NCBI GenBank assembly: GCA_002333425.1
Contig: DDBL01000133.1
Location: 5,740-69,739, forward strand
From: Leptospiraceae bacterium UBA2033
GTDB taxonomy: Bacteria; Spirochaetota; Leptospiria; Leptospirales; Leptospiraceae
Direction of reading: 5' to 3'
Length of the DNA stretch: 64,000 nucleotides
A program made the position numbers and the translations under genes. How positions within the stretch are numbered: the first letter of the stretch is position 1; each line of letters starts with the position of its first letter. Shown here in pieces: positions 2,905 through 36,493 of this stretch. The notes beneath the pieces are model-generated. The model worked only from the letters and a program-made list of their open reading frames with translations. It ran no database searches and was not told where the DNA came from.

Positions 2905-4350
2905 ATGGCAAAGGGTAATCCACAAAGATTTTCAAGTGATATCTTAATTACTACTCAGTTGCATATCAGCTCGATTGAAAACATTCGGGCTGTGCTTTTT
3001 GGTTCTAATTTGTCTGCGGAAGCCAAAGAGATCATTGATAGTCAAAAAGAAGATATCCAAATCCAACTAGACGAAATCCAATCGACTTATTCTAAATTCA
3101 TTCAGCGACTTGCGGGTAAGGCGATGAAGGATGAGGTCGAAAAACAAGCATCTGAGTTGTTTCCAGACGAAGATGTTCAACCCCAAGAAATTGAATTTGT
3201 AAAACTAAAGATTATATATGAGAATTTATCTTCTTTTTTAAGGGGAGTTGAGACAGCTTGGAATAATATAATTGGAATGTCTAAAGTTTTTGCTACATAC
3301 CCAATCACAAAACCACTTTATGAAAAAATAGAAAGAGAAAATTTAAGTCTTATCAATATATTAAATGATGATACTCGTGCGTTATTAAAGTTAATTGAAA
3401 CTACTTTTGATTGTCATATAGTTGGTTCATCTAAATCTGACAAACGGCTAATGGTGAGTAATCTCATATTTGATGATGGAAAAGATTATTCCTTTCAAAG
3501 TTTATTCAAAAACTTACAACCATTAGCTGCTGCTCCCGTACAGTCTGTTCCCAAACTTTCGGAAAGACTCGGTATGTCTAAAAATAAAGTTCCATCTCAA
3601 GAGACAGACTATTATTATACGACTATTAAAGGAACTAAGGAATGGAATCGAAATGATGCTTACATTCTATATGTTAAAAAAGATGATCTGAAAGAAGAAG
3701 AAAAGAAGTTTTATAGTTCGAGTTTTGTAATTTTAAATCCATCAGAAAATGTTCACATTAATTTAGCTGCCGCTCTCGTTCGTAAAAACATGGGGCATTC
3801 TGCAGCACCAAAATACAATAAGATGTTGCAGACTTTACTTGATTTTGCTGTGACTAATTTATTTTCAAAAGACTTTGTGGATCTTTGTGATGATACATAT
3901 ACATTTCTCTATCACATCGGTCCGATTGTAATTTATAACATCATCCAAGAAGATTTGGTCAGAAGAGATTTTGGATATTGTCATTATGTAGAAAATAATA
4001 AGATAATAAAATTCTTACCTGAGTGTATTATTAAAAAACATATTATAGATTTTTGGGCTGATAAGTTTTTTGATTTAAAATCATCAAGTGTGGATGCTTA
4101 TATTAATTACTCTAAAGGAGTATCTAATATTAGAGAATCCTATAAAAATTTCTTTGAATACGCAGCATCAACTCGTAAGAGAATTACAAATGATCCATTG
4201 ACTATTGAAGAATACATGAGAGAAAATGTTGGAAAGTTTTTTGGTCATAGAAGAGCGCAGGTTTATAGACGTTTTGTACCTGATAATGTATTTGGACTTA
4301 TGCCTGAAATTAATTCTACAGAGTTAGCAAACAAATTCAAGTCTCGTTAA
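2905..4350 (+). CDS. Hypothetical protein (481 aa)
   Basis: A long ORF starting 2 nt after the ftsH stop with coding-like composition. I recognise no motif. Confidence 0.6.
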   Translation: MAKGNPQRFSSDILITTQLHISSIENIRAVLFGSNLSAEAKEIIDSQKEDIQIQLDEIQSTYSKFIQRLAGKAMKDEVEKQASELFPDEDVQPQEIEFVKLKIIYENLSSFLRGVETAWNNIIGMSKVFATYPITKPLYEKIERENLSLINILNDDTRALLKLIETTFDCHIVGSSKSDKRLMVSNLIFDDGKDYSFQSLFKNLQPLAAAPVQSVPKLSERLGMSKNKVPSQETDYYYTTIKGTKEWNRNDAYILYVKKDDLKEEEKKFYSSSFVILNPSENVHINLAAALVRKNMGHSAAPKYNKMLQTLLDFAVTNLFSKDFVDLCDDTYTFLYHIGPIVIYNIIQEDLVRRDFGYCHYVENNKIIKFLPECIIKKHIIDFWADKFFDLKSSSVDAYINYSKGVSNIRESYKNFFEYAASTRKRITNDPLTIEEYMRENVGKFFGHRRAQVYRRFVPDNVFGLMPEINSTELANKFKSR

Positions 4351-4351
4351 T

Positions 4352-4900
4352 ATGCCTACCATCTTTTCTCATGGCATTGCTGCATTATCCGCAGCGAGTA
4401 TTTTTAAAACTAAATTTGATAAATCGAAGTTTTACTTACTTGTATTATTTTGTTCTTTGATTCCTGATGCTGATGTAATTGCTTTTCCGTTAGGTATTCC
4501 GTATGCACATTGGTTGGGGCATAGAGGGATTACCCACTCGATTTTATTTTCAGTTCTATTTCCTATACCAATTTTATTTATTTTTTATCGTTTTGTTCCA
4601 GTGTTTACACTTCGTTACCTGCTATTATGGTTTGTGTTTTTTTTATCTACGTTATCTCATGCGCTTTTGGATGCACTTACGAATGGAGGACTTGGAGTTT
4701 GTTTGTATTGTCCTTTTAATGTCGATCGATTTTTCTTTGACTTTAGACCAATTCAAGTTTCTCCTATTGGTAAACGATTTTTTTCAGAAGCAGGTCTTCG
4801 TGTTTTACAATCTGAATTTGTTTGGATTTGGATTCCTTCTATTATATTTTTTGGTGTATCAAATTTTCTCAAACTAATACTGGATCAAAGAAGAAAGTAA
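4352..4900 (+). CDS. Membrane-bound metal-dependent hydrolase, YdjM/YbcI (DUF457) family
   Basis: 182 aa and multi-TM. It has N-terminal FSHG, PDADV and GHRGITHS motifs typical of DUF457. It starts 1 nt after the upstream stop. Confidence 0.7.
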   Translation: MPTIFSHGIAALSAASIFKTKFDKSKFYLLVLFCSLIPDADVIAFPLGIPYAHWLGHRGITHSILFSVLFPIPILFIFYRFVPVFTLRYLLLWFVFFLSTLSHALLDALTNGGLGVCLYCPFNVDRFFFDFRPIQVSPIGKRFFSEAGLRVLQSEFVWIWIPSIIFFGVSNFLKLILDQRRK

Positions 4901-4928
4901 TCATATCATTTCTCAAAAAGAATTGCGT

Positions 4929-4949
4929 CTTACATCGAGTTCACGTTAA
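4929..4949. repeat. Solo terminal-repeat copy of the MITE-like element at 43715-43928
   Basis: CTTACATCGAGTTCACGTTAA is 21/21 identical to the reverse complement of 43715-43735. It lies between two convergent stop codons. Confidence 0.75.
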
Positions 4950-4974
4950 ATAAAGTTATAGATAAGTTGTAATT

Positions 4975-6252
4975 CTAGAACGAAGCCTGGAAACGAAAGT
5001 TAAATAATGAATTTGTTCCCATTTGAGGACCATTTAAGTGTTGGTAAATTGGTTTTCCAATTTCAAACCCAGCTTTCATTTTTTCAGAAAAAGAGGGAAA
5101 ATAGAAGTTAACCCCTCCTAATAAATCTATCCTTCTTCCTCCTTGTCGATTTGGATCATTTTGTGGATCCATCGTTGGGTCTAGGTTTGGATCGGCTCCT
5201 GATATATTGTCCCATTTAGAGGACGTTATGCGCAATGTAGGAGCAAGCCAATTAAGTAAAAGATAAGAAGTCCACAGTGAAAATTCATAACGATTTCCGA
5301 ATCGATACCCATTGTCATTTTTACCATTTCGAAGTGTAACTTGAACAAAACTACCTAGTGAAAATTTTTCTTTTTTGAATATATAGCTAATTGCTGGAAT
5401 TGTATTATAGGTTCCTGTTCCCATTTGCATATTGTAGGGTGATTTTACTTTTCCCATCAGAGGCATTGTATTTTTTTCATCAATAGATCCTGTTGGTATT
5501 GTAATTCCTAACTGAACATTGATAGTATGGGATTCTTTTTCTAATAATTTATGAGCGAGTGTGAGTCCTATATCTCCAATTCCTTGTGTTCTCATAAATG
5601 ATTTTTCTAAATTTCCTGAGATCATCTGCATACTATTATTCATATAAGGTAGCATAATCATGATTGCTGTTTTGTCTGATATATTTTTCATGAGGCTAAT
5701 CATTGTCATCTCCATCTTCATCGCTACAGGCATAGACATATACCGATAGGAATTTGGATTGAGAGAGGCTACGTAGTATGAAGGTAAAGGATCTGGTGTC
5801 GTTGAAGTATTGGTCGTTGTTCCTGAGTGATCATGAATAGCCCCTGTCCCTAACTGGCTGGATGGAATTGAGCCTATTGTAGGATTATATTCAATACCCG
5901 CTAGATATTTATTTGGATCTTCTACGTTATTTCCATTGTAAAGAGAACGCATATCCATTTGCATATACATATAATCTACCATCCAATCATTCGAATTGTG
6001 TATATGGGGAAGCATTAGCCCAGCCGGGGTCATCATTGGCTCCGAATGTATATGCGGATTACTTGGCGTAACTGCTTTCTCCTTTGTGGTTTTTGTTTCT
6101 TCTAATTGTTTGACCGTAGATTTTGATTCGTCTTGGTGTTGCGGATATTTGTGGTTATGCCCTTCATGGCTTTGTCCCAGTAAAGAAAAACACGAAAGTA
6201 TGAGAATGTAACCCAAGTATATTATGGTTCGATACATTTTTTTTTGTAACAT
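4975..6252 (-). CDS. Outer-membrane beta-barrel protein with His/Met-rich N-terminal region
   Basis: Has a signal peptide; start chosen at MLQKKMYRT (6252). The mature N-terminus is HEGHNHKYPQHQ...HIHSEPMMTPAGLMLPHIHN...MYMQMDM. The body alternates in beta-strand fashion and ends with C-terminal ...FRFQASF. Confidence 0.65.
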   Translation of the reverse strand: MLQKKMYRTIIYLGYILILSCFSLLGQSHEGHNHKYPQHQDESKSTVKQLEETKTTKEKAVTPSNPHIHSEPMMTPAGLMLPHIHNSNDWMVDYMYMQMDMRSLYNGNNVEDPNKYLAGIEYNPTIGSIPSSQLGTGAIHDHSGTTTNTSTTPDPLPSYYVASLNPNSYRYMSMPVAMKMEMTMISLMKNISDKTAIMIMLPYMNNSMQMISGNLEKSFMRTQGIGDIGLTLAHKLLEKESHTINVQLGITIPTGSIDEKNTMPLMGKVKSPYNMQMGTGTYNTIPAISYIFKKEKFSLGSFVQVTLRNGKNDNGYRFGNRYEFSLWTSYLLLNWLAPTLRITSSKWDNISGADPNLDPTMDPQNDPNRQGGRRIDLLGGVNFYFPSFSEKMKAGFEIGKPIYQHLNGPQMGTNSLFNFRFQASF

Positions 6253-6263
6253 AATTTTTTCCT

Positions 6264-6692
6264 TTATTGATTTGAACCACCGGCAATCCAACAATAGACT
6301 GCTTCATTGATTTGCCGATTGGAATTGCCTGCCATTGCGCCTGTTGTAATTGCAGTATACATTCTGCTAGAACAAGGATTTCCAGGATTTGTAAATGCCT
6401 TAGTTGAATTATAGTCTGTTATATCCAAACCAGATTGTTGTGTGGCTCTAGTATGACAGCCTGACGTTGCGCAACTAACGTTTGTTCCTGCGGCGGCTAA
6501 CTTACTAAAACTAGGAGAGGTTGTACAGTTAAAGCTAGAAGTGCAAGAAGAGGAAGGGATAGAGGAAGATGGTGTCGTTGCTTTTCCTGTATGGTTTAAA
6601 ACTGCTAATGCCAGAGCTTGTTTGTTTGTATTATCATTTGTTTCGTTGCAGTTTACGGCTAATGCAAGTAAAATGGGAATTAGTATTTTCAT
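6264..6692 (-). CDS. Lipoprotein with putative c-type-cytochrome-like (PSCyt-like) domain, CX4CH motif
   Basis: True start MKILIPILLALAVNC at 6692 with RBS GGAGA. It contains the motif SCATSGCH and a C-terminus INEAVYCWIAGG resembling planctomycete-type cytochrome domains. The ORF-track N-terminus (6693-6863) runs through a repeat element. Confidence 0.5.
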   Translation of the reverse strand: MKILIPILLALAVNCNETNDNTNKQALALAVLNHTGKATTPSSSIPSSSCTSSFNCTTSPSFSKLAAAGTNVSCATSGCHTRATQQSGLDITDYNSTKAFTNPGNPCSSRMYTAITTGAMAGNSNRQINEAVYCWIAGGSNQ

Positions 6693-6728
6693 GTCTATTT
6701 CTCCTGATGGACTAAATTTACATATATA

Positions 6729-6804
6729 TGCCACGGAGGCACTGAGTCGCAGAGGGTTGAAATATATATTTATCAAACTCTCCGTGCCTTTGTGCCTCTG
6801 TGGC
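6729..6804. repeat. Inverted pair of TTGCCAC + triple-octamer elements
   Basis: The left arm is TGCCACGGAGGCACTGAGTCGCAGAG (6729-6754). The right arm is CTCCGTGCCTTTGTGCCTCTGTGGCA (6779-6804, reverse orientation). The pair is intergenic inside the minus-strand operon. Confidence 0.8.
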
Positions 6805-6816
6805 AAAATTAATGGT

Positions 6817-8169
6817 TTAATGGGAATGATTGGATGCAGATCCCAGTGTATGAAAGAAAACATTACTAAAACTTCCTTTCAATTCTAGTCTTTGTGTTAC
6901 TGCATTTGTTTCAGAATCTACAGTATACAAAATTCCATCTCCAGCAGGAACGAATATATGCATCATGGAGTCATGATTTACAGATGCAAGATGTCTATGT
7001 CCTGTTTTTGCATCTCCTACTGTGACTTGAGCTAGGAGTGTAAGACTTGGAAGGTTAGACGAATCATAAACTAAAAGTACATTTTGTTTTAAATTGGTAA
7101 CTTGATTGCCTGAACCTGAAAGTGCTGATGCGACATACAAGCGTTTACCGTCAGAGCTAAACATCATATGATCGGGGCTAAGGTCTGTTACATCTATAGT
7201 TGAAAACACATGAGTAGATGCATTTAAAATAGTTACTTTTCCTACAACATGGTTTGTGTCACTTGTTGTGTCTTTTCCTGGAATTGCAATGTATTGTCCA
7301 TTGGGAGATGCTGTTGACGGACCAGATTTTCCAGTAGCAATAGTTTCCATTGTTAGACTTGATGGGTTAACAGCGATTACACTTCCGGCAGATTGTGCGG
7401 ATATATATACTTTGCCAGAGACTGAAGAGTAACTAAAACCATGTGGTCCCGCTCCTGTTCCTAAATTTAGTGTGCTAATTACAGTCAGATAATTACTGCT
7501 AGTTGGTTCATTGTCAATTATAGAAATCGAATTGTCTGTGATATTACTAACAAACGCTCTCTTAGGACTTGTTGTAAAAATTGCTTTGTGATGTCCCTTA
7601 CCAACACATAGATGTTTGATTAAGCTTGCAGTATCTGCATCTGCTGCTCCTTTTACTCCATCTTGAATGACCGTAACAGAGGATACTCCAAGTGTATTAC
7701 ACGCATAATTAACATTATCCACACCTGCATTTCCATCATTCATTGTCCAAATTTTCCCATCTGGATCTTGGTAGACATGGACTGGACGACTTCCTGTGTC
7801 AATGTACTTCGCAAGTTTTGCTCCTGATGTTGCAATATTGATGACTGCAACTTTGTTTGAGTTTGTTAGGTTGGCGAAAATATGATCGTTCGTTGTAGCC
7901 TTAGAATCTCCAGGGTTTGAGTCTAACACAACGTTGCTTATAAAAGTATTTGCACCGGAGTTATGGGCGATAACGCTTAGATAGGGCATCGTTGTGTCTA
8001 GATTCGGAACAAACAGGTAGGAAGAATTACTGATTGTTTTGGGAATTAAACCTGCCAGACCAAGGATTGTTTGGTTGTTATTATTTGTATTTTTTTTCTC
8101 AGATCCTGTAAAGGTAAGGCTACAGGATATACTTTGTAGAATGAGCAGTGCTATTAATATTGGTTTCAT
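6817..8169 (-). CDS. Beta-propeller (YVTN/lactonase-like repeat) lipoprotein
   Basis: Start MKPILIALLILQSISC at 8169 with RBS GAGGAG. Periodic ~40-aa repeats are rich in G/S/T/V (e.g. ...GKIWTMNDGN..., ...GKVYISAQSAG..., ...GKRLYVASALSG...). The C-terminus is SNHSH. Confidence 0.6.
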   Translation of the reverse strand: MKPILIALLILQSISCSLTFTGSEKKNTNNNNQTILGLAGLIPKTISNSSYLFVPNLDTTMPYLSVIAHNSGANTFISNVVLDSNPGDSKATTNDHIFANLTNSNKVAVINIATSGAKLAKYIDTGSRPVHVYQDPDGKIWTMNDGNAGVDNVNYACNTLGVSSVTVIQDGVKGAADADTASLIKHLCVGKGHHKAIFTTSPKRAFVSNITDNSISIIDNEPTSSNYLTVISTLNLGTGAGPHGFSYSSVSGKVYISAQSAGSVIAVNPSSLTMETIATGKSGPSTASPNGQYIAIPGKDTTSDTNHVVGKVTILNASTHVFSTIDVTDLSPDHMMFSSDGKRLYVASALSGSGNQVTNLKQNVLLVYDSSNLPSLTLLAQVTVGDAKTGHRHLASVNHDSMMHIFVPAGDGILYTVDSETNAVTQRLELKGSFSNVFFHTLGSASNHSH

Positions 8170-8210
8170 AAAAATCTCCTCAGATTTCAATGGCTAATTT
8201 TATTTAGCCG

Positions 8211-8252
8211 TATTTTGTGGCAAATTTGAATTTGCCTTGTAATCGGTGTTAT
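8211..8252 (-). promoter_or_regulatory. Conserved 42-nt promoter/operator block, copy A
   Basis: The minus-strand sequence is ATAACACCGA-TTACAA-GGCAAATTcaAATTTGCCa-CAAAAT-A. That gives a -35 at 8242-8237, a 19-nt spacer containing an 8-bp dyad, and a -10 at 8217-8212. It is 41/42 identical to 12949-12990, and similarity ends right after the -10. Confidence 0.55.
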
Positions 8253-8265
8253 TTTTTGATGTGAG

Positions 8266-8658
8266 CTAACTGAATCGAGGAGGTTTAATTAGTGTTAGCT
8301 GGTAACCTTTAAGATTTGAAATTAAATTTGAAATTGGAAAAATATGTTGGGTTAGTTGAATTGTAAAGTTTGAAAAATTGTAAGATGGCAGAGTGAAAGT
8401 TTGCTTTAACAAATTAGAGAGTTCGTTTGGATTTTTAGTTTTCTTACAAGAGCAGATATGAACTGCCTTGTTTATGTCATGACAATCTGATTTTGCATAA
8501 GACTTAAAATGGGCTTCTTTTTTTGAATTGTGGTTACAGATACATACTTGCCTAACTTTTCGCATAAAACAAAGTCCTGAATCATAAATCAAACTTTGTG
8601 ATAGAACGGCAGAAATAATAATACAAGTAAAAACTGATTTTTTAATCACTTTCTGCAT
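8266..8658 (-). CDS. Small membrane-anchored Cys/His-rich protein, paralog A (130 aa)
   Basis: Start taken at MQKVIKKS by alignment with paralog B. It has a hydrophobic N-terminus and motifs CICNH, DCHD and HICSC. It shares 97/130 identical residues with 13083-13475 (hand count). Confidence 0.7.
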   Translation of the reverse strand: MQKVIKKSVFTCIIISAVLSQSLIYDSGLCFMRKVRQVCICNHNSKKEAHFKSYAKSDCHDINKAVHICSCKKTKNPNELSNLLKQTFTLPSYNFSNFTIQLTQHIFPISNLISNLKGYQLTLIKPPRFS

Positions 8659-8805
8659 GATAGATATATTTTTTACTTTAGAGTTTGTCAAGTAAGATTC
8701 GGTTTCCTAAATATTTAATTTTTAAAAATTCGTCATAGCAAATATTTCTAAACTTGATTTAAGTCAAGGATAATAATTATTATTCTCATTTTGTATCCTA
8801 TAAAT

Positions 8806-9741
8806 TTACAAATTAAAAATAAACGCAATATTAATTGAAGATTCATAAGGACGAAAATCTCTGCCACGATACAACGGATTACGGTAAGAAACCGTAAGCA
8901 TATATTTTTCACTAAATCTATAATTTACACCAAGGGTAACTTCTCTAAAAATTAATGGAACTTTATCTCCGCTTGATCTTTCTTTTTGTATTCCATTAAA
9001 AGGAGTCCTATAAGTATAACCAGAAAAAATTGAAATATGATTATTGATTATATAGGAAATAAAACCTGCGGCGTTTGTCGTTTTTTTTAGCTGGATGTTG
9101 TCTATTTGGTTGTAGGTAAATTTTTGTTCTTGTCTTAGTATATATGGAACTTCGTCGTTTGTATTGTTCGTATCACCTGTATAGCGGCTAATAGGCATTT
9201 CACCTCCTATTCTACCTACTACAGAAATCCTTTTCCATAAATAGCCAAATGCTAAATTACCTTGCGCTGTATAATAATTACTTTCTATGAATTTTTGATT
9301 TACTCCACTTGTAGGAAATCCTATTCGCCCTTCTGCAAAGAAAAAATAGTTATTCTCTGCTTGTGTTTTATAAAAAGGAAACAACTTTGAGCCAATATAA
9401 GGTTTACCGTAACGTGCAAAATCAGAACGTTCCTTTTGGTCATAATAGATATAGCTAAAATTTGCGTTTACAGTAAATAAACCTTGCATAAAAATACTTT
9501 CACCGTAAATCGTTGTGTTGTTTATATTTCTATTTTCTTGTGATCCGCGATTGTAGTCATTACTTAAAATAAAATACGTTGGCGGAAATTTACCAGTATC
9601 CTCCCCCTGACCCAAAAAGCGAACATTGAACTGAGTTGTATCAAGTCCAGAACCTGTATGATGTGCATTAAGATAAATAGATGTTAAGAGATAATACAAA
9701 GTAGCCGCTAGAATCTTCTTTTTAAAATTCATTTTCTGCAT
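8806..9741 (-). CDS. Outer-membrane beta-barrel protein
   Basis: Has a signal peptide ending ...YLNA followed by HHTGSG. Strands alternate aromatic and polar residues. The C-terminal region LGVNYRFSEKY... resembles GGVNFYFPSFSEKM of the 4975-6252 barrel. Confidence 0.6.
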   Translation of the reverse strand: MQKMNFKKKILAATLYYLLTSIYLNAHHTGSGLDTTQFNVRFLGQGEDTGKFPPTYFILSNDYNRGSQENRNINNTTIYGESIFMQGLFTVNANFSYIYYDQKERSDFARYGKPYIGSKLFPFYKTQAENNYFFFAEGRIGFPTSGVNQKFIESNYYTAQGNLAFGYLWKRISVVGRIGGEMPISRYTGDTNNTNDEVPYILRQEQKFTYNQIDNIQLKKTTNAAGFISYIINNHISIFSGYTYRTPFNGIQKERSSGDKVPLIFREVTLGVNYRFSEKYMLTVSYRNPLYRGRDFRPYESSINIAFIFNL

Positions 9742-10643
9742 CCGTGTTCTTTTATTGTTGTGTTTAGATTCCAGTTCTTTAGTATTTCATTGTAAATACC
9801 TGAATTTTCTGAAGAACTAATGATTGGGTTACTTTCGGTTAAATCGGTTATTGCCCGTAAGATTTTTGTATTATCGATTATTGTATAACTATTCGTAGTA
9901 GTATCTTTCCATAATTCAGAATATTTTAGAGCCATTTTCAAGTTTAGATTTTGATTGAGTCCTAGATTGGTTGTACAAAGTCTTGTGAATGGTATATCTA
10001 TTTTCGAAAATTGAAGTGTAAAGTTTTTTGTTTTATTATCTCCACTTATTGTTCCAGAAAAATGAACTGAATTAAAATGAAATGTAACTTTTTGCAATAT
10101 TCCCTGTGGTAAATCCGAAAGAACAAAATTTTCTGATATATTATAATAACCAAACTCATCTGATCCATTAGCGTTTAGGAATGAAGACGTTGAATAGCCA
10201 TTAGCCGTCGTAAATACTTTAATTGTTGCTGACGCGGAGCTAGAAGATCCGCTATCAGCTTCATGTAGCATAACTTGGTTAGTCGCATCAGATGAATTAA
10301 TGCTGGAACTAGTTGTAGATATATATAATTCTACTTTATCAAAACTTATTTGAGAAGAATTATTTAATGTTACTGTATAGATATCCGAAGCCACTGCACT
10401 GTTTAACTGAAAAGATTTTAAACTCTCATCTCCTTGGTCATCATAGAATAAAATCTGTAAACTTGCATTTGTTTTTATAGATTCCCGAAGAAGTGAAAGT
10501 CTGTTTATAATTATTTTTTTCTCGGTAAGACTGTTTCCTTCAGAGCCAAATGTGCAGTAACTGCTACTTAGAAGCAATAGCAAAGAACAACTAATAGTTC
10601 TTTGCCATACTTTTATATGATATAAATTAAATTTTAGTTTCAT
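9729..10643 (-). CDS. Lipoprotein, unknown function (Ser-rich)
   Basis: Lipobox LLSSSYC. There is an ATGA overlap with the upstream MbnH-like gene and an overlap with the downstream barrel gene. Confidence 0.6.
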   Translation of the reverse strand: MKLKFNLYHIKVWQRTISCSLLLLLSSSYCTFGSEGNSLTEKKIIINRLSLLRESIKTNASLQILFYDDQGDESLKSFQLNSAVASDIYTVTLNNSSQISFDKVELYISTTSSSINSSDATNQVMLHEADSGSSSSASATIKVFTTANGYSTSSFLNANGSDEFGYYNISENFVLSDLPQGILQKVTFHFNSVHFSGTISGDNKTKNFTLQFSKIDIPFTRLCTTNLGLNQNLNLKMALKYSELWKDTTTNSYTIIDNTKILRAITDLTESNPIISSSENSGIYNEILKNWNLNTTIKEHGCRK

Positions 10644-11839
10644 TGAAATGGATTACTAAATTTAGGATTAGAAATAAACTCATCATCAGTCAGAGCTTTT
10701 AAAAAATTTATCAAATCTGTTCTTTCTTGTGGCGTTAAGGTAAAAGCACGTATTTGCGGATCTTTGTTCTTATGTGATAAGCCACCGGATGCATAATGAT
10801 CGATAACCTTTCCAAGTGCTTCGGTGGAACAATTTTCAATGTCACTAGGACTTGCAGTCGTACAAGTAAAGCTTCCATCGTGCATGTAAGGATATGTCAA
10901 TGCGATGTTTCTAAGGGATGGTGGTTTAAACTTTCCAATATCAGTCTGTAAAAGGGTAACTTCATAAAGTCCTTTTTTGTTGTCAGGTAAACTAGCATAA
11001 GTCGTATCTGAAATAATTCCGTTACTGGAATAAGAAACTTCCTCAAACACAGTTCCTGCATGAGTCATCGAATTAGTATAGTTGATTCCTCCATGACAAT
11101 GAAAACACTCAGCCGTTTCTCCATTAAAAACTGCAAGCCCTCGGATAGCAGATGAGGATAAGGCGGACTTATCTCCATAATTCAAGTATTTGTCTACTTT
11201 TGATTTGCCGCTAATTAAACTTCTTTGAAAACTAGATAGCGCAAAACGAACATTTTGCTCTGTTATATTTTCAATTCCACCTCCGAACGCACTTTGGAAT
11301 AATGTTCTATAGCGACTATCGGACTTTAGGCGATTTAGGTAATCATCATTACTAAGTCCAAGTTCAATTGGACTTGTTCCAAACATAGGACCACGTGCTT
11401 GAATTTCTAAAGAAGTCATTTTGTCATTTGACCAGGTTAAACGCGTATTATACGCAACGTTTGCAAGATTCTGAGAGTTTCTGGGATGAACTTCAGCGGT
11501 AGATCCAATACCAAATGGTTTTCTATCAGTAAATGCAAATTCCTGAAGATGACAACTGGAACAGGATTGAGTTTGATTTTGCGACAAGTTTTTATCATAG
11601 AATAAAAAACGTCCCAAAGTAACTTTTTCTTCAGACATTGGATTTTCTCTCGGAACACTTGGTATTGGAAAATCATTGGGCAAATTCCAATTATATCCAA
11701 TTTGAGATCGTCCAGAAAATTGAGCAATAAAGGCTGATTGAAGTAGTTGCGAATTATTCTTATTATCCTTATTCGCTTTGTCAAAACTTGTTCCACAATA
11801 GATTGTAGACAAGAGCAGTAGTATAATGAATGATTTCAT
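10640..11839 (-). CDS. Di-haem cytochrome c peroxidase/MauG family enzyme, MbnH-like
   Basis: Start MKSFIILLLLSTIYC at 11839 with RBS GGAGGAAG. Two CxxCH motifs (CSSCH, CFHCH) are present, plus FKPPSLRNIALTYPYMHDGSF, which is typical of the CCP/MauG family. Confidence 0.85.
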   Translation of the reverse strand: MKSFIILLLLSTIYCGTSFDKANKDNKNNSQLLQSAFIAQFSGRSQIGYNWNLPNDFPIPSVPRENPMSEEKVTLGRFLFYDKNLSQNQTQSCSSCHLQEFAFTDRKPFGIGSTAEVHPRNSQNLANVAYNTRLTWSNDKMTSLEIQARGPMFGTSPIELGLSNDDYLNRLKSDSRYRTLFQSAFGGGIENITEQNVRFALSSFQRSLISGKSKVDKYLNYGDKSALSSSAIRGLAVFNGETAECFHCHGGINYTNSMTHAGTVFEEVSYSSNGIISDTTYASLPDNKKGLYEVTLLQTDIGKFKPPSLRNIALTYPYMHDGSFTCTTASPSDIENCSTEALGKVIDHYASGGLSHKNKDPQIRAFTLTPQERTDLINFLKALTDDEFISNPKFSNPFQ

Positions 11840-11969
11840 TTTCTTCCTCCAGAGAAGTAGATGCAAAAAGAAAAGTAGGATTTGAAATTGTTTGGCTCAC
11901 CTTGTTATAAAATTTAACAAAGTGAGTCAAACAAGGAACACTACTTAAATCTGTTTTAGATGTATCGTA

Positions 11970-12905
11970 TTACCGAATACTGAATGCTGATTGCGTTGTT
12001 GTTGCCCCGGTTGAAGGCACGATACCGATGTTAGAGATTATCGGCTGACAAGCAGTAGTCGCATTCCCAGTCATACAAATATTAATTCCTGTGCTAGAGG
12101 CATCTGAGCCACTAAAAAGAGCATTCAAGTCAAGAGTGATTACATCCCTTGTTGCATTAAATCCAGTTGCTTTTGTTAAAGAAATTGTAGGACGATTTGG
12201 TAAACCACATTCATTTATTGGTCCGGTAGTATTGCCTGAACAAGAACCACTTCCGAGGTGAAATTGATTTTTACTTGTTGCAGTAAATTCTATTTTTGCA
12301 AATTTATAACCACTATTCCATGCCCAATACATAGCAATATTATTTAGTGGAGAAGTTGCAGTAGATGTTGATAAATGATTTAAGTAAAATGGAACTCCGA
12401 TTTTAAATTCTACACCCACATAGTTACCAACTGCAGAAGTTCCGATAATGGATTTGTTTGTTTCAGTAGTTCCCCCACTACAACCGTTAGTCGCATCTTC
12501 AAAGTCAAGAAGTGCTACGCCTGAGTAACTTCCAAACGAGTTGGAACCAGCGCCTAATTGCCATTTTCCGTCGGTAGTGATTAAAAAATCTGACTTTGTT
12601 CCATCAGTTGATATTAATTTTACATCATGAACATAGAATCGTAAATCATTTAGAGTTGCACCTGTTGTTCCTGCGATAGTTCCAGAAAGAGTTCCGGCAC
12701 AAGAAACGTTAGTGTTTCCAGACACAACATTAAAATTGATTGTAGATACAGAAGTTGGAGAAGACGAATTGATTTGATTGGACACAAGTGCGATAGCCGC
12801 CTGTTGAGTCGGGTTTTTGTCTGTGTCTTTTTTTCCTGTAATTGTATCACAGGAATTAATTAGTGTAGATAAAAATAGAATTGTTAAAATGATAAAATGT
12901 TTCAT
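11970..12905 (-). CDS. MbnP-like 'metallo-mystery pair' four-Cys/WxW lipoprotein
   Basis: Lipobox TLINSC and a WxW motif (YWAWNSGYKF). It has several conserved-looking Cys residues (VSCAG, NGCSGG, GSCSGN, NECG). It sits immediately upstream of the di-haem MbnH-like gene. Confidence 0.7.
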   Translation of the reverse strand: MKHFIILTILFLSTLINSCDTITGKKDTDKNPTQQAAIALVSNQINSSSPTSVSTINFNVVSGNTNVSCAGTLSGTIAGTTGATLNDLRFYVHDVKLISTDGTKSDFLITTDGKWQLGAGSNSFGSYSGVALLDFEDATNGCSGGTTETNKSIIGTSAVGNYVGVEFKIGVPFYLNHLSTSTATSPLNNIAMYWAWNSGYKFAKIEFTATSKNQFHLGSGSCSGNTTGPINECGLPNRPTISLTKATGFNATRDVITLDLNALFSGSDASSTGINICMTGNATTACQPIISNIGIVPSTGATTTQSAFSIR

Positions 12906-12948
12906 AAAATATCCTTGTAAAGTATGAGTAATACTGTTTACTCTATAT

Positions 12949-12990
12949 TATTTTGTGGCAAATATGAATTTGCCTTGTAATCGGTGTTAT
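12949..12990 (-). promoter_or_regulatory. Conserved 42-nt promoter/operator block, copy B
   Basis: 41/42 identical to 8211-8252. The -35 TTACAA is at 12980-12975, the dyad GGCAAAT/ATTTGCC lies in a 19-nt spacer, and the -10 CAAAAT is at 12955-12950. Confidence 0.55.
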
Positions 12991-13000
12991 CTTTCTATAC

Positions 13001-13079
13001 GAGCGCGGGCGGCGGTTTTACGATGTAGAGACAGGTTTGAAACCTGTCTCTACGACGATGATGTCGCCGCATCGCCCAG
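13001..13079 (-). repeat. GC-clamped extended hairpin element, copy 2
   Basis: Layout is GAGCGCGGGCGGCGG, then the hairpin GTAGAGACAGGTTtgaAACCTGTCTCTAC, then CGCCGCATCGCCC. It begins 4 nt after the stop of the minus-strand gene 13083-13475, in the same relative orientation as copies 1 and 3. Confidence 0.7.
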
Positions 13080-13082
13080 AAT

Positions 13083-13475
13083 TTAAGAAAACTTAGGAGG
13101 TTTAATGAGTGTTAGCTGATAGCCTTTATGGTTAGAAATAGAATTTGAAATTGGAAATATATAATGCGTTAGTTGAATGGAAAGAACAGAGAGCGTATTT
13201 GTTGTGATGAAAAAAGTTTGTTTGATTAGATTAGAGAGTTCGTTTGGATTTTTTGTTTTTTTACAAGAGCAAACGTGAACTGTTTTTTTTATATCATGGC
13301 AATCTGATTTTACAGAAGATCTGGAATGGATTTCTTTTTTTGAGTTGTGGTTACAGGTGCATATCTGCCTGACCTTACGCATAAAACAAAGTCCAGAATC
13401 ATAAATCAAACTTTGTGAAAGGACAGCAAAGATAATAATAAAACTCAAAATAGATTTTTGAATCACGCTTTGCAT
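13083..13475 (-). CDS. Small membrane-anchored Cys/His-rich protein, paralog B (130 aa)
   Basis: MQSVIQKS... with a hydrophobic N-terminus and motifs CTCNH, DCHD and HVCSC. The C-terminus GYQLTLIKPPKFS is conserved with paralog A. Confidence 0.75.
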   Translation of the reverse strand: MQSVIQKSILSFIIIFAVLSQSLIYDSGLCFMRKVRQICTCNHNSKKEIHSRSSVKSDCHDIKKTVHVCSCKKTKNPNELSNLIKQTFFITTNTLSVLSIQLTHYIFPISNSISNHKGYQLTLIKPPKFS

Positions 13476-13669
13476 GTTAACTACGGTCTAATTCTAAACA
13501 TTCTGCTTGTCAAGGAACATTTTACTGTAACCTCATCGCCCTGCGTGATATATATCATATTAGGTTCATGATCTAGATCAATGTGCAAATATTATGAGTA
13601 GGCAAAATCTATTTTTTTTACTGAAATGAATTGCAGGGAAACGATAAATTTGTACATTGCTAAATTAGT

Positions 13670-14275
13670 ATGAAACAAATATTGCTTGTTCCTAATCTTT
13701 TAACTTTGTCTCGGATGATTCTTATTTTTCCCTCGATCTATTTTTTAGAAAAGTCTGAGTTTTTAATTGCTGCTATTCTGGTGGCTATTTTACTTTTAAC
13801 AGATTTTTTCGATGGGTTTTTCGCTCGTAAGTTAAATCAAACTTCCTATTTGGGAGCAATCCTTGATCCAGTTGCAGATAAAATGGTTGTCATTCTTTTT
13901 TTTACTCATTTGATTTTGGTGAATTCTACTTCTCCGCTTTACTATGGCTTAGTTTTGACACGTGATATTTTACAGCTTTCTGTTATTCCGATTTTACTTC
14001 TTTGGAAAAAAATTGAGTTTAAAGTGAAACCAAGTCGGATTGCAAAACTAGGTACGGCTTTGAATTTTATTATTCTCGCTTTATATGAAATGAACTTTGT
14101 AGTTGCAAAAACTCCTGAGTGGTATGCGCGGTTTCTGGATGAATTGCAGACTTTGAATGTGTTTACTTTATTTCCTTTGCTTCTCATTTCCGCTTGTATT
14201 GAAGTTTACATCTTGTTTACCTTTATCCCTAGATTCATTCAGATTTATAAAGGGACTCATGATACATTTGAATAG
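13670..14275 (+). CDS. pgsA: CDP-alcohol phosphatidyltransferase (PgsA-like)
   Basis: Carries the signature DG-x2-AR-x8-G-x3-D-x3-D as DFFDGFFARKLNQTSYLGAILDPVADK. It is multi-TM. Confidence 0.8.
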   Translation: MKQILLVPNLLTLSRMILIFPSIYFLEKSEFLIAAILVAILLLTDFFDGFFARKLNQTSYLGAILDPVADKMVVILFFTHLILVNSTSPLYYGLVLTRDILQLSVIPILLLWKKIEFKVKPSRIAKLGTALNFIILALYEMNFVVAKTPEWYARFLDELQTLNVFTLFPLLLISACIEVYILFTFIPRFIQIYKGTHDTFE

Positions 14276-14314
14276 TTTTTTATTTTATCTCTCTATTATA
14301 TAAAAGGAAAAAGT

Positions 14315-15730
14315 ATGGATATTGTAATTTTTATTATTGTGCTTCTTGGATTTATTTATGTTGGTTTACGGGAAACAAAAAAAGTAAAGGACGATAACTC
14401 CTACTTACTCGCGAATCGTAAGACTGGCTTATTTGCATTAGTCGCTACTCTTGTGATGACTGAGTTTAATACTTCTACATTACTCGGATTTTCCGCTGCT
14501 GGTTATTCAGTTGGTATCTGGGGACTAACGCTTCCATTTGTATTTTTATTCGGTCTAGGTTTTTATACGTTTACTGTTGCCAAAAAATGGAAGAAGTTAA
14601 ATGGGATGAGTGTAGCTGAATTATTTTCTCTTCGTTATGGTAGTACAGTGGGGATAACAGCCAGTTTGTTTTTGATTTTTGCTATGATTGGGTTTAGTGC
14701 GACCTATGTTAAGTCTGTCACTGTAATCTTTCAGCCATTTTTACCGGATGTAAATTCTTATATAGTCAGTGCTCTTCTGGTAGGGGTTGTGCTTCTCATG
14801 ACTCTTCGTGGTGGATTGGTTTCTGTTATTTCTACCGATATTATGGGATTTATTGGAACTATTTTTATCGTTCCTTTACTGTTTTACTTTTCCTATTCTC
14901 AAAAGAATTTAGGTTTAGAGGAAATTATTCGTGTATTTCCACCTGAAAGTTCTAATGCACTTCCTATTCGGTACATCGTTTCTCTTGTAATACTTACAAT
15001 GTTTACTTATATAGCAGCACCTTGGTACGGACAAAAGATATTTGCCGCAGCTTCTGAAAAAACGGCTTTTATTGCAGTTGGAATTTCGAGTGTTATTGTA
15101 TTTATCCTTTACGCCTTTCCTATATTAGCCGTTGCTTATCTCAGACTTAATGGTGTAACGGGGATTAACCCCGAGGAAGGAATTCCTTATATTATCAAAT
15201 CCTATTTCCCAGTAGGTCTTAGGGCTATTGCGTTTGCTGTGTTATTCGCTGCTGCTGCTACAACTCTTTCTGGAATTTGGAGTGCATTAACTACAATGCT
15301 CGTGGGTGATTTCTTATTATCCGCTAAGAACCCAAAACTAGGAAAAGATTATATAGGAAGTATGAAAATATTTTTTGGATTTGCTTTTGTATCGTGGCTT
15401 TTGGGAAATATATTTGTAGATAAAATTTTAAATAAACTCATCCTTGCGAATATTCCAATTGCTGCTCTTTCGTTTGCTCTTCTTGCTGGATTTTTTTGGA
15501 AGAGAGCATCTAGGCGAGGGGCGATATTAAGTATTGTTCTTGGACTTATTTGGGGTCTTGGTTGTTACTTGTATTTGGGGGAGGATGGTGGTTATACATG
15601 GTTTTGGGCAGCTTATGGAATCCCGTTAATTTTTGTGAGTGGTATAATTGGATCTTTCTTGTTTCCTCAGTCAGAGGAAGAAAAGAAGGCACTCGAAAAA
15701 TTTAATCTTAGAATGAAAGATGAGTCCTGA
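14315..15730 (+). CDS. Sodium:solute symporter family transporter
   Basis: 471 aa with about 13 predicted TM helices and SSF-like spacing. The call rests on overall resemblance only. Confidence 0.65.
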   Translation: MDIVIFIIVLLGFIYVGLRETKKVKDDNSYLLANRKTGLFALVATLVMTEFNTSTLLGFSAAGYSVGIWGLTLPFVFLFGLGFYTFTVAKKWKKLNGMSVAELFSLRYGSTVGITASLFLIFAMIGFSATYVKSVTVIFQPFLPDVNSYIVSALLVGVVLLMTLRGGLVSVISTDIMGFIGTIFIVPLLFYFSYSQKNLGLEEIIRVFPPESSNALPIRYIVSLVILTMFTYIAAPWYGQKIFAAASEKTAFIAVGISSVIVFILYAFPILAVAYLRLNGVTGINPEEGIPYIIKSYFPVGLRAIAFAVLFAAAATTLSGIWSALTTMLVGDFLLSAKNPKLGKDYIGSMKIFFGFAFVSWLLGNIFVDKILNKLILANIPIAALSFALLAGFFWKRASRRGAILSIVLGLIWGLGCYLYLGEDGGYTWFWAAYGIPLIFVSGIIGSFLFPQSEEEKKALEKFNLRMKDES

Positions 15731-36231: not shown

Positions 36232-36312
36232 GGGGCGATTCGGCGAACTCTATTGTAATAAAGACGCACAGCCATGCGTCTCTACAGCATTCCACAAAAC
36301 GCCGACCGCGCT
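36232..36312 (+). repeat. GC-clamped extended hairpin element, copy 3 (degenerate)
   Basis: Layout is GGGGCGATTCGGCG, then the hairpin AGACGCA/TGCGTCT, then CGCCGACCGCGCT. It begins 2 nt after the upstream stop. Confidence 0.6.
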
Positions 36313-36493
36313 TTTGTTCCAATGCCGGATTTTTCGGATTTGGAACACCTTATCATTTTAATGTGAAACTCTTTACAACTAACGGCATTTCCACGACAAT
36401 CGCTATCGCTACGAGTAGAAATATTTTGCTGTTGACGATTAAATTGGAATAGAAAAAATAAAACTTAAATCACACCCTTGTTAAAATAATTTT

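Follow-up and report, generated by a model that had tools for sequence, protein, structure and literature searches.

What does a 42-nt block do that stands, with a single letter changed, at the head of each of two operons in a 64-kb window (the whole stretch of Leptospiraceae DNA analysed here)? All of the genes in this region lie on the minus strand and form two units in tandem, and on that strand both copies of the block read ATAACACCGA TTACAA GGCAAATTC(A/T)ATTTGCCA CAAAAT A. An earlier note, made from the letters alone, took the block for a MerR/CueR-style promoter. Judged by the comparisons set out below, the 42-base block is a real conserved control element, and it is most likely a promoter that contains a protein-binding inverted repeat. 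Its assignment to the MerR/CueR class was not borne out.

Two tandem units and the promoters of their small genes

Both units start with a small gene of the LIC_11090 family (Table 1). In unit A, this gene is followed by the block, which begins 13 nt past the stop codon, and then by genes for a beta-propeller lipoprotein, a LIC11213-family lipoprotein and a Met/His-rich outer-membrane protein. Unit B runs from the small gene through a GC-rich hairpin element and the block to genes for MbnP, MbnH, an Lsa30-like protein and a LIC11086-family outer-membrane protein. The MbnP and MbnH genes are adjacent, and their products score well above the family cut-offs (224 bits against 140 and 430 against 363, respectively). 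MbnP/MbnH pairs are widespread copper-handling modules, and we know of no account of their regulation outside methanotrophs. The homologous Leptospira cluster, LIC11086-LIC11090, includes proposed adhesin and vaccine candidates, and a literature search for the regulation of this cluster, or of MbnP in Leptospira, found nothing. The MbnP/MbnH relatives CorA/CorB and MopE are copper-acquisition genes that are repressed by copper (PMC3621798). By analogy, the cargo of the block looks like copper acquisition, not efflux.

Table 1. Positions in the window of the features of the two units, with the strand where one applies
Feature	Position	Strand	Remarks
FNR/FixK-type box TTGATTTAAGTCAA, upstream of small gene A	8754-8767		TTGACA -35 at 8686-8691
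Small gene A, LIC_11090 family (PF28271), 131 aa	8266-8661	minus	signal peptide and Cys/His-rich mature part
Block copy A	8211-8252	minus	heads the beta-propeller/LIC11213-lipoprotein/Met-His-rich outer-membrane-protein operon; covariance-model match 59.6 bits
TTACAA, -35-like box, copy A	8237-8242	minus	ATTACA 90-100% conserved in relatives
Dyad of copy A, 18 bp, GGCAAATT-CA-AATTTGCC (hairpin 1, candidate operator O1)	8219-8236
CAAAAT, -10-like hexamer, copy A	8212-8217	minus	19 nt after TTACAA
Hairpin 2, locus A, 18-bp GGCTAA-N6-TTAGCC	8192-8209		2 nt after CAAAAT
Beta-propeller lipoprotein gene	6817-8169	minus	first gene after block A
FNR/FixK-type box ATGATCTAGATCAA, upstream of small gene B	13568-13581		second box 13546-13557; TTGACA -35 at 13508-13513
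Small gene B, LIC_11090 family (PF28271), 130 aa	13083-13475	minus
GC-rich REP-like hairpin element	13000-13077	minus	between small gene B and block
Block copy B	12949-12990	minus	heads the MbnP/MbnH/Lsa30-like/LIC11086-family operon; covariance-model match 57.7 bits
TTACAA, -35-like box, copy B	12975-12980	minus
Dyad of copy B, 18 bp, GGCAAAT-TCAT-ATTTGCC	12957-12974
CAAAAT, -10-like hexamer, copy B	12950-12955	minus
Hairpin 2, locus B, GAGTAA-ACAGTA-TTACTC	12926-12943	minus	sequence unrelated to locus A hairpin 2
MbnP-family copper-binding protein gene	11970-12905	minus	first gene after block B; TIGR04052, 224 bits
MbnH gene	10640-11839	minus	after MbnP; TIGR04039, 430 bits

The last gene of operon A (4975-6252) encodes an outer-membrane beta-barrel-like product with a weak match to Phenol_MetA_deg, and Met- and His-rich stretches in the N-terminal part of this product suggest copper binding. 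A long GC-rich inverted repeat (GCCACAGAGGCAC...GTGCCTCCGTGGC) was found at about 6745-6800, between the beta-propeller gene and the next gene of the operon; in one relative (L001), this place is taken by a different hairpin (TGTAGGGGCA...TGCCACTACA).

The products of the LIC_11090 family carry an n-h-c signal peptide ahead of a basic region rich in Cys and His, with invariant C-x-C-N-H-N-S, D-C-H and C-S-C-K-K motifs and an LIKPPR tail. The AlphaFold2 model of the small protein was of low confidence (pLDDT 46) apart from the signal-peptide helix. The protein is possibly a periplasmic metal carrier. It was also considered as the regulator of the unit, but with a signal peptide and an uninformative model it is not a credible DNA-binding protein.

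The small genes have a promoter region of their own. Boxes of the FNR/FixK type (TTGAT-N4-ATCAA) precede almost all small genes of the clade, at a distance of about 95-115 nt; the match is perfect in nine loci (L005, L009, L010, L012, L017, L025, L029, L033 and L004) and has one mismatch in both copies in the window, and all perfect matches in the fetched DNA lie upstream of small genes. The box is followed by a weaker second box and then by a perfect TTGACA. In the relatives, a -10-like xAAAxT found 16 nt after TTGACA would place the start of transcription 0-5 nt before the start codon of the small gene, and from this predicted start the small-gene mRNAs may be leaderless. No Shine-Dalgarno sequence precedes either small gene in the window (8662-8695, 13476-13515). 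Transcription-factor control of the unit is likely to come mainly through the FNR/FixK boxes, and no gene of the CRP/FNR family was found in the window.

The block and its counterparts in related Leptospiraceae

Re-reading and alignment confirmed that the two 42-nt copies are identical at 41 positions, that copy A contains an 8-bp and copy B a 7-bp dyad (with centres of 2 and 4 nt, respectively), and that the similarity between the two loci ends directly after CAAAATA, where unrelated 5' leaders begin. The block is also better conserved than the paralogous small genes, as had been claimed: these are 75% identical as proteins and 77% as DNA, and with the latter value as background, identity at 41 or more of 42 positions has a P of about 3e-4. 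GGCAAAT-N4-ATTTGCC has exactly two matches in the window, where 0.37 would be expected even with two mismatches allowed. On the coding strand the predicted fold of the block was better than that of shuffled sequences (z = -4.3 and -4.8), and on the plus strand it was no better (z = -1.3). In the relatives that have two units, the paired blocks are identical at 34 of 42 (L025) and 40 of 42 (L017) positions, and on this comparison near-perfect identity is peculiar to the genome of the window.

The 3' end of the small gene (CTAACACTAATTAAACC) and the 5' part of the block (ATAACACCGATTACAAGG) are alike at 12 of 15 positions (8273-8300 compared with 8237-8252, and 13090-13117 with 12975-12990), and one C/T difference tracks in both across two clades. 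This likeness could be due to chance, duplication or a shared partner.

The proposal that the block goes with the downstream genes held. Its distance to the ATG is nearly constant in beta-propeller-type operons (62-70 nt from the TTACA box), whereas its distance to the small gene ranges from 13 nt to more than 250 nt, with GC-rich repeat modules inserted there. The hairpin element said to part copy B from its small gene is present and belongs to a family with at least three copies in the window, and most relatives have one to three GC-rich modules in the same place. Hairpin-plus-T-tract terminators follow the small gene in two remoter relatives (L004 and L031). With repeats, or in remoter relatives true terminators, standing between it and the small gene, the block is to be assigned to the downstream operon, and as the small gene also has its own promoter, the operon probably needs a promoter in or next to the block.

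The GC-rich modules have the form GGGCGATRCGGCG...CGCCGCCCGCGCTCG, often with a second hairpin and a ATCGCTATCGCT tail, and are modular and REP/BIME-like. Elsewhere in the window, copies lie directly after stop codons (279-415, 36233-36412), and they therefore mark gene ends; one copy (about 297-335) holds a canonical terminator. In the relatives they were found between small gene and block in L001-L003, L005-L013, L027 and L033.

To examine the block outside the window, 34 related loci were collected, four and eight of them from small-protein scans of a genome and a metagenome collection, respectively, and a covariance model of the block was run on about 300 kb. The closest relatives are uncultured Leptospiraceae known from metagenomes of sludge and bioreactors. 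In each of the model's 24 matches, a gene of the LIC_11090 family stands on one side and the first gene of an operon of the MbnP or beta-propeller type on the other, and the model found no block elsewhere in the approximately 300 kb of related DNA. The conserved parts are an A-rich AARAAT, AAYACC, ATTACA(A/C), the dyad and CCAC(A/T)A. The arrangement of TTACA(A/C), a 17-18-bp dyad and an xAxxxT hexamer 18-20 nt downstream was found in 11 of 14 distinct sequences (L009 was read by hand), with spacers of 18 (n=3), 19 (n=3) or 20 bp (n=5), and of 17 bp in L027. No xAxxxT hexamer stands 18-20 nt downstream of the TTACA box in L010 or L011.

In most relatives the dyad is GGCATA-N6-TATGCC, and in both copies in the window and the closest relative, L013, it is GGCAAAT-N4-(A/G)TTTGCC, a compensated A-T to T-A change. 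The dyads of L001 and L025b end in TATGCT, those of L003 and L010 are 17 bp long, that of L033 has a bulge and an extra inner G-C pair, and L027 has a 12-bp palindrome, GGGTATATACCC, in its 17-bp spacer. Eleven of 15 variants span 18 bp in total, and the half-sites are conserved in sequence. The stem of this dyad (hairpin 1) is common to both operon types of a genome, GGCAAAT in the window and GGCATA in L025 and L017, and differs between genomes.

Downstream there is a second dyad, hairpin 2. Only 1-4 nt separate it from the -10-like hexamer in beta-propeller-type operons, where it lies 7-10 nt from hairpin 1, and GGCTA-N8-TAGCC is invariant in nine relatives of this type. MbnP-type operons have a hairpin 2 of other sequences, and this hairpin differs freely between the two operon types of one genome.

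Remoter relatives, with small proteins 55-57% identical, are without the block; they have a terminator, then a different 18-bp dyad and then an A-rich hexamer. The dyad is ACTGTA-N6-TACAGT in L004 (6440-6480) and TAACACA-N4-TGTGTTA in L031 (620-672), in both preceded by an ACAA motif and followed closely by an A-rich -10-like hexamer. Where the homologue is only 27-42% identical to small protein B of the window, the intergenic regions are short and contain no block, and in L022 and L024 there is some hairpin between the small gene and mbnP. The intergenic region of L029 was considered as a homologue of the block, but the alignment was ambiguous.

Two proposed readings: promoter with an operator or stem-loop in a leader RNA

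The reading that we place first, with a rough probability of 0.45, is that the block is the promoter of the operon and that a site for a dimeric DNA-binding protein acting in trans takes up its over-long spacer. As the cis-regulatory core at the head of each operon, the block would form a weak promoter of the sigma-70 type with a -35-like TTACA(A/C), an 18-20-bp spacer and an A-rich -10-like hexamer, the two hexamers being used by RNA polymerase. The 17-18-bp inverted repeat in the spacer would be read as double-stranded DNA by a dimeric protein encoded outside the window. In beta-propeller-type operons, a second 18-bp inverted repeat of similar overall form, GGCTAA-N6-TTAGCC, would lie over the predicted start site, with the -10 hexamer enclosed between the two sites. 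Whether the operon is transcribed would then depend on their occupancy and not on the small gene. As to the sign of this regulation, repression by occlusion would be the simplest reading, and a MerR-like remodelling of the spacer is possible.

The anatomy of the block is conserved, its position is exclusive to the heads of these operons, it is separate from the small gene and its dyad is uniform within a genome. Since the stem of hairpin 1 is the same within a genome and different between genomes while hairpin 2 varies freely, a sequence-specific trans-acting partner is suggested. The covariation term of RNAalifold was essentially nil (-0.01). The recurrence of ACAA, an 18-bp dyad and (x)AAAT in L004 and L031, with different dyad sequences, fits a site that co-evolves with its factor.

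Several observations count against a promoter with an operator. The hexamers are weak, TTACAA matching the consensus at three and CAAAAT at four of six positions, and -10-like hexamers are common in AT-rich DNA. A scan for consensus sigma-70 sites (16-18 bp spacing) found none in either block, which fits only the relaxed reading of 18-20 bp. The dyad is kept by compensatory changes (A-T to T-A in the clade of the window, a new palindrome in L027 and the extra inner G-C pair in L033). All four single-sided changes in constrained pairs of the stem (L001, L025b, L029 and L011) leave a G.U pair on the coding strand, which favours RNA structure. Hairpin 2 of beta-propeller-type operons lies so near the -10-like hexamer (1-4 nt) that it could not be an RNA hairpin if transcription begins at the proposed promoter. 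An alternative -10-like sequence, AARAAT at the 5' edge of the block, is equally conserved (12 of 15) and would put both hairpins in the 5' leader.

These observations lead to the second explanation, which we hold to be possible and less probable than the promoter with an operator. The dyad would be the first of two (sometimes three) stem-loops in the transcribed 5' leader or intercistronic RNA of the operon, made either from AARAAT, starting close to GATTACA, or by transcription that reads through from the promoter of the small gene. Together with a conserved single-stranded 5' flank, AUAAYACCNAUUACA, the stem-loop would act post-transcriptionally: it could be a hairpin that stabilises the 5' end, the A-rich stretch linking the two hairpins could be processed by an RNase, or an RNA-binding regulator could recognise the stem-loop. 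No structures other than hairpins 1 and 2 were predicted consistently across nine relatives, the fold is better than shuffles on the coding strand only, and the compensatory changes in hairpin 1 extend to the stem of hairpin 2 in MbnP-type operons (GCGGTAA to GCGGAAA to GAGTAA) and to a mini-hairpin stem (AGGC/GCCT to GGGC/GCCC). The loops vary freely in length (3-7 nt) and the linkers run from 7 to 10 nt, unphased and so unlike cooperating DNA sites, and the retention of AARAAT and the hairpin between small gene and mbnP in the remoter L022 and L024 are also consistent with a leader. There is one counter-example to the G.U changes, an A.C at the innermost pair in L003, and the wobble evidence amounts to four or five events, each with about a 50% chance of giving G.U under GC-to-AT mutation bias.

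A leader RNA also leaves some features unexplained. The stems are conserved in sequence, with the covariation term given above, and a purely cis-acting hairpin does not explain why the two operon types of a genome share one and the same hairpin 1. There was no match in Rfam (a search of 4000-15000 at E <= 1 gave nothing relevant), and no consistent closing helix or pairing that would sequester a Shine-Dalgarno sequence. The candidate upstream -10, AARAAT, comes without a -35, and simple read-through is opposed by the terminators and repeats behind the small gene. The sequence evidence for a DNA site and for an RNA hairpin appears roughly balanced. The promoter with an operator is ranked first and the leader RNA second because DNA operators are by far the commoner case among inverted repeats that are recognised in trans.

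Two related RNA structures were set aside. A riboswitch-like cis-regulatory RNA does not agree with two independent hairpins that have no closing helix and no covariation signal, and a three-way-junction fold closed by GAUU/AAUC was predicted for copy A in the window and for L001 only, not in the consensus.

The dyads also fit a wider pattern, GGNWWA-N6-TWWNCC, which occurs 20 times in the window at the N6 spacing, against 1-7 times at other spacings and 1.9 expected (an excess of about ten-fold). The N6 peak is present in all close relatives and absent from the distant L020, L022 and L024. Sites in the window (for example at 1625, 16082, 44956, 52306 and 58731) are mostly inside genes, in any frame. 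Because the intragenic copies have no excess complementarity, this is a pattern at the level of DNA and points to recognition of DNA by a protein. Perfect GGCWWA-N6-TWWGCC in the window is confined to the two block dyads and hairpin 2 of locus A.

It is conceivable from these counts, though rather unlikely, that the block dyads are the strongest sites of an abundant lineage-specific dimeric DNA-binding protein whose pattern is iterated about once per 3 kb and which would gate two copper-acquisition operons from sites on either side of the -10 hexamer. If true, this would be a previously undescribed global system of DNA pattern and regulator in uncultured Leptospiraceae. The link between pattern and block is weakened because L004 and L031 share the pattern and their own operon-head dyads do not fit it.

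The MerR/CueR proposal now seems improbable in its strict form, in which a dimer sits in the 19-20-bp spacer and, when loaded with metal, untwists the DNA to align the hexamers. Between the hexamer-like sequences there are 19 bp here and 18-20 bp in most relatives, but with matches to the consensus at only three and four of six positions the assignment of the hexamers is itself uncertain. The spacer is always 18-20 bp and never 16-17 wherever the 18-bp dyad is present, the dyad fills it symmetrically, and the downstream genes for MbnP and MbnH are metal-related. The soxS (18-bp palindrome, 19-bp spacer), merT and copA promoters are likewise built with a dyad that fills the spacer. Against this, the absence of a MerR-family domain from the window, already remarked on, was upheld in the 29 ORFs scanned, which include all of the size of a transcription factor, and Pfam tables for about 30 related neighbourhoods contained no MerR-family gene; the gene of a cognate regulator usually lies next to such a promoter or divergent from it. 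The length of the dyad drops to 17 bp in L003 and L010 and to 12 bp (in a 17-bp spacer) in L027, a bulge interrupts it in L033, and remodelling of the MerR type should be intolerant of such variation in length. The second dyad, downstream of the -10-like hexamer, is a feature absent from MerR promoters; both hexamers are far from consensus, where promoters of that class have good ones; and the dyad is unlike known MerR-family operators. The cargo is of the acquisition type, and the copper repression of CorA/CorB and MopE (PMC3621798) is opposite to the induction of CueR promoters by metal excess. Part of the data is accounted for just as well by a stem-loop in transcribed RNA. The element may nonetheless work like a MerR promoter.

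A much less probable account is that the dyads are local copies of GGNWWA-N6-TWWNCC, kept genome-wide by a nucleoid protein, as a methylation target or as a HIP1-like palindrome, with no role specific to the operons and with the 41/42 identity due to recent gene conversion. The genome-wide N6 peak would agree with this, and the 34/42 identity of the L025 blocks leaves room for recent conversion in the window. However, the block occurs at operon heads only, its position and the flanks outside the dyad (ATTACA, CCAC) are kept where the small proteins are only 60-77% identical to copy B, and gene conversion would not end precisely where the block does, with unrelated flanks beyond. That the hairpins act on the opposite strand, as tandem terminators of an antisense transcript running from the first operon gene towards the small gene, is hardly credible: plus-strand hairpin 2 of locus A followed by GTATTTTG scored as terminator-like, and the equivalent dyads of L004 and L031 have T-rich tails on that strand, but no plus-strand promoter-like site was found upstream, the T tails are weak in most relatives, and both the G.U-compatible changes and the plus-strand fold, no better than shuffles, speak against it.

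Other candidates were rejected outright. As an intrinsic terminator of the small gene, the coding-strand stem is followed by ACAAAATA, with no T tract, and no terminator was called at the block. For sigma-54 (GG-N10-GC; TGGCAC-N5-TTGCW), the GG and GC in GGCAAATTCAAATTTGCC are 13 nt apart and the spacing in the relatives is equally unfit. The spacings are also unfit for an ECF-type promoter, and the supposed -10 positions are not conserved. Some resemblance to a dif/Xer-like or REP/RAYT-like site (GCATAA; TTAC 5' of a hairpin) was outweighed by the presence of only two copies, at a fixed distance from the start codon and with none elsewhere.

The element is lineage-specific and probably of a common kind, whether promoter plus operator or stem-loop in a leader. 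Conserved at the heads of MbnP/MbnH-type operons, and accompanied by the gene for a small Cys/His-rich secreted protein with its own FNR-type promoter, it provides a handle for finding the regulator and the signal (copper, oxygen or both) of these operons. Of the by-products, the genome-wide GGNWWA-N6-TWWNCC pattern is the less ordinary, and both it and the FNR-type boxes deserve following up.

Comparison with known systems

The extragenic palindromes of the REP/BIME type resemble the GC-rich element of unit B and its kin, which are stable, modular, multicopy hairpins found directly after stop codons. They do not resemble the block, which is AT-rich, stands at two operon heads only and falls outside that family. 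The FNR/FixK system is matched by the consensus boxes upstream of the small genes, but these are sited outside the block. ATTACA reads TGTAAT on the other strand, a possible lead to the 'copper box' of CopR/CusR; a literature search for the consensus of that box did not find it.

The promoters merT, copA (CueR), zntA (ZntR) and soxS (SoxR) share with the block -35-like and -10-like hexamers 19-20 bp apart and an 18-bp repeat in the spacer, and the block likewise heads metal-related genes. In contrast to them, the length of the block dyad and its spacing vary among orthologous sites, and the operator sequence is unrelated. The 5' hairpin of ompA and the intercistronic processing stem-loops of papBA and puf are stabilising elements of a similar kind: two short GC-clamped hairpins with an A/U-rich linker upstream of a Shine-Dalgarno sequence, with stems kept through compensatory and G.U changes and loops that vary. 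Unlike these, the stem and 5' flank of the block are conserved in sequence, and because they are the same in both operons of a genome, a sequence-specific partner is suggested, not structure alone.

For the promoter with an operator, the relevant comparison is with the ArsR/SmtB 12-2-12 pairs, the cop boxes of CopY and the CsoR sites, which are operators of metal-sensing repressors whose genes need not adjoin them. We know of no match between the half-site GGC(A/T)(A/T)A and these operators. In layout they resemble the head of the operons described here, where a pair of inverted repeats lies around or across the -10 and the start site.
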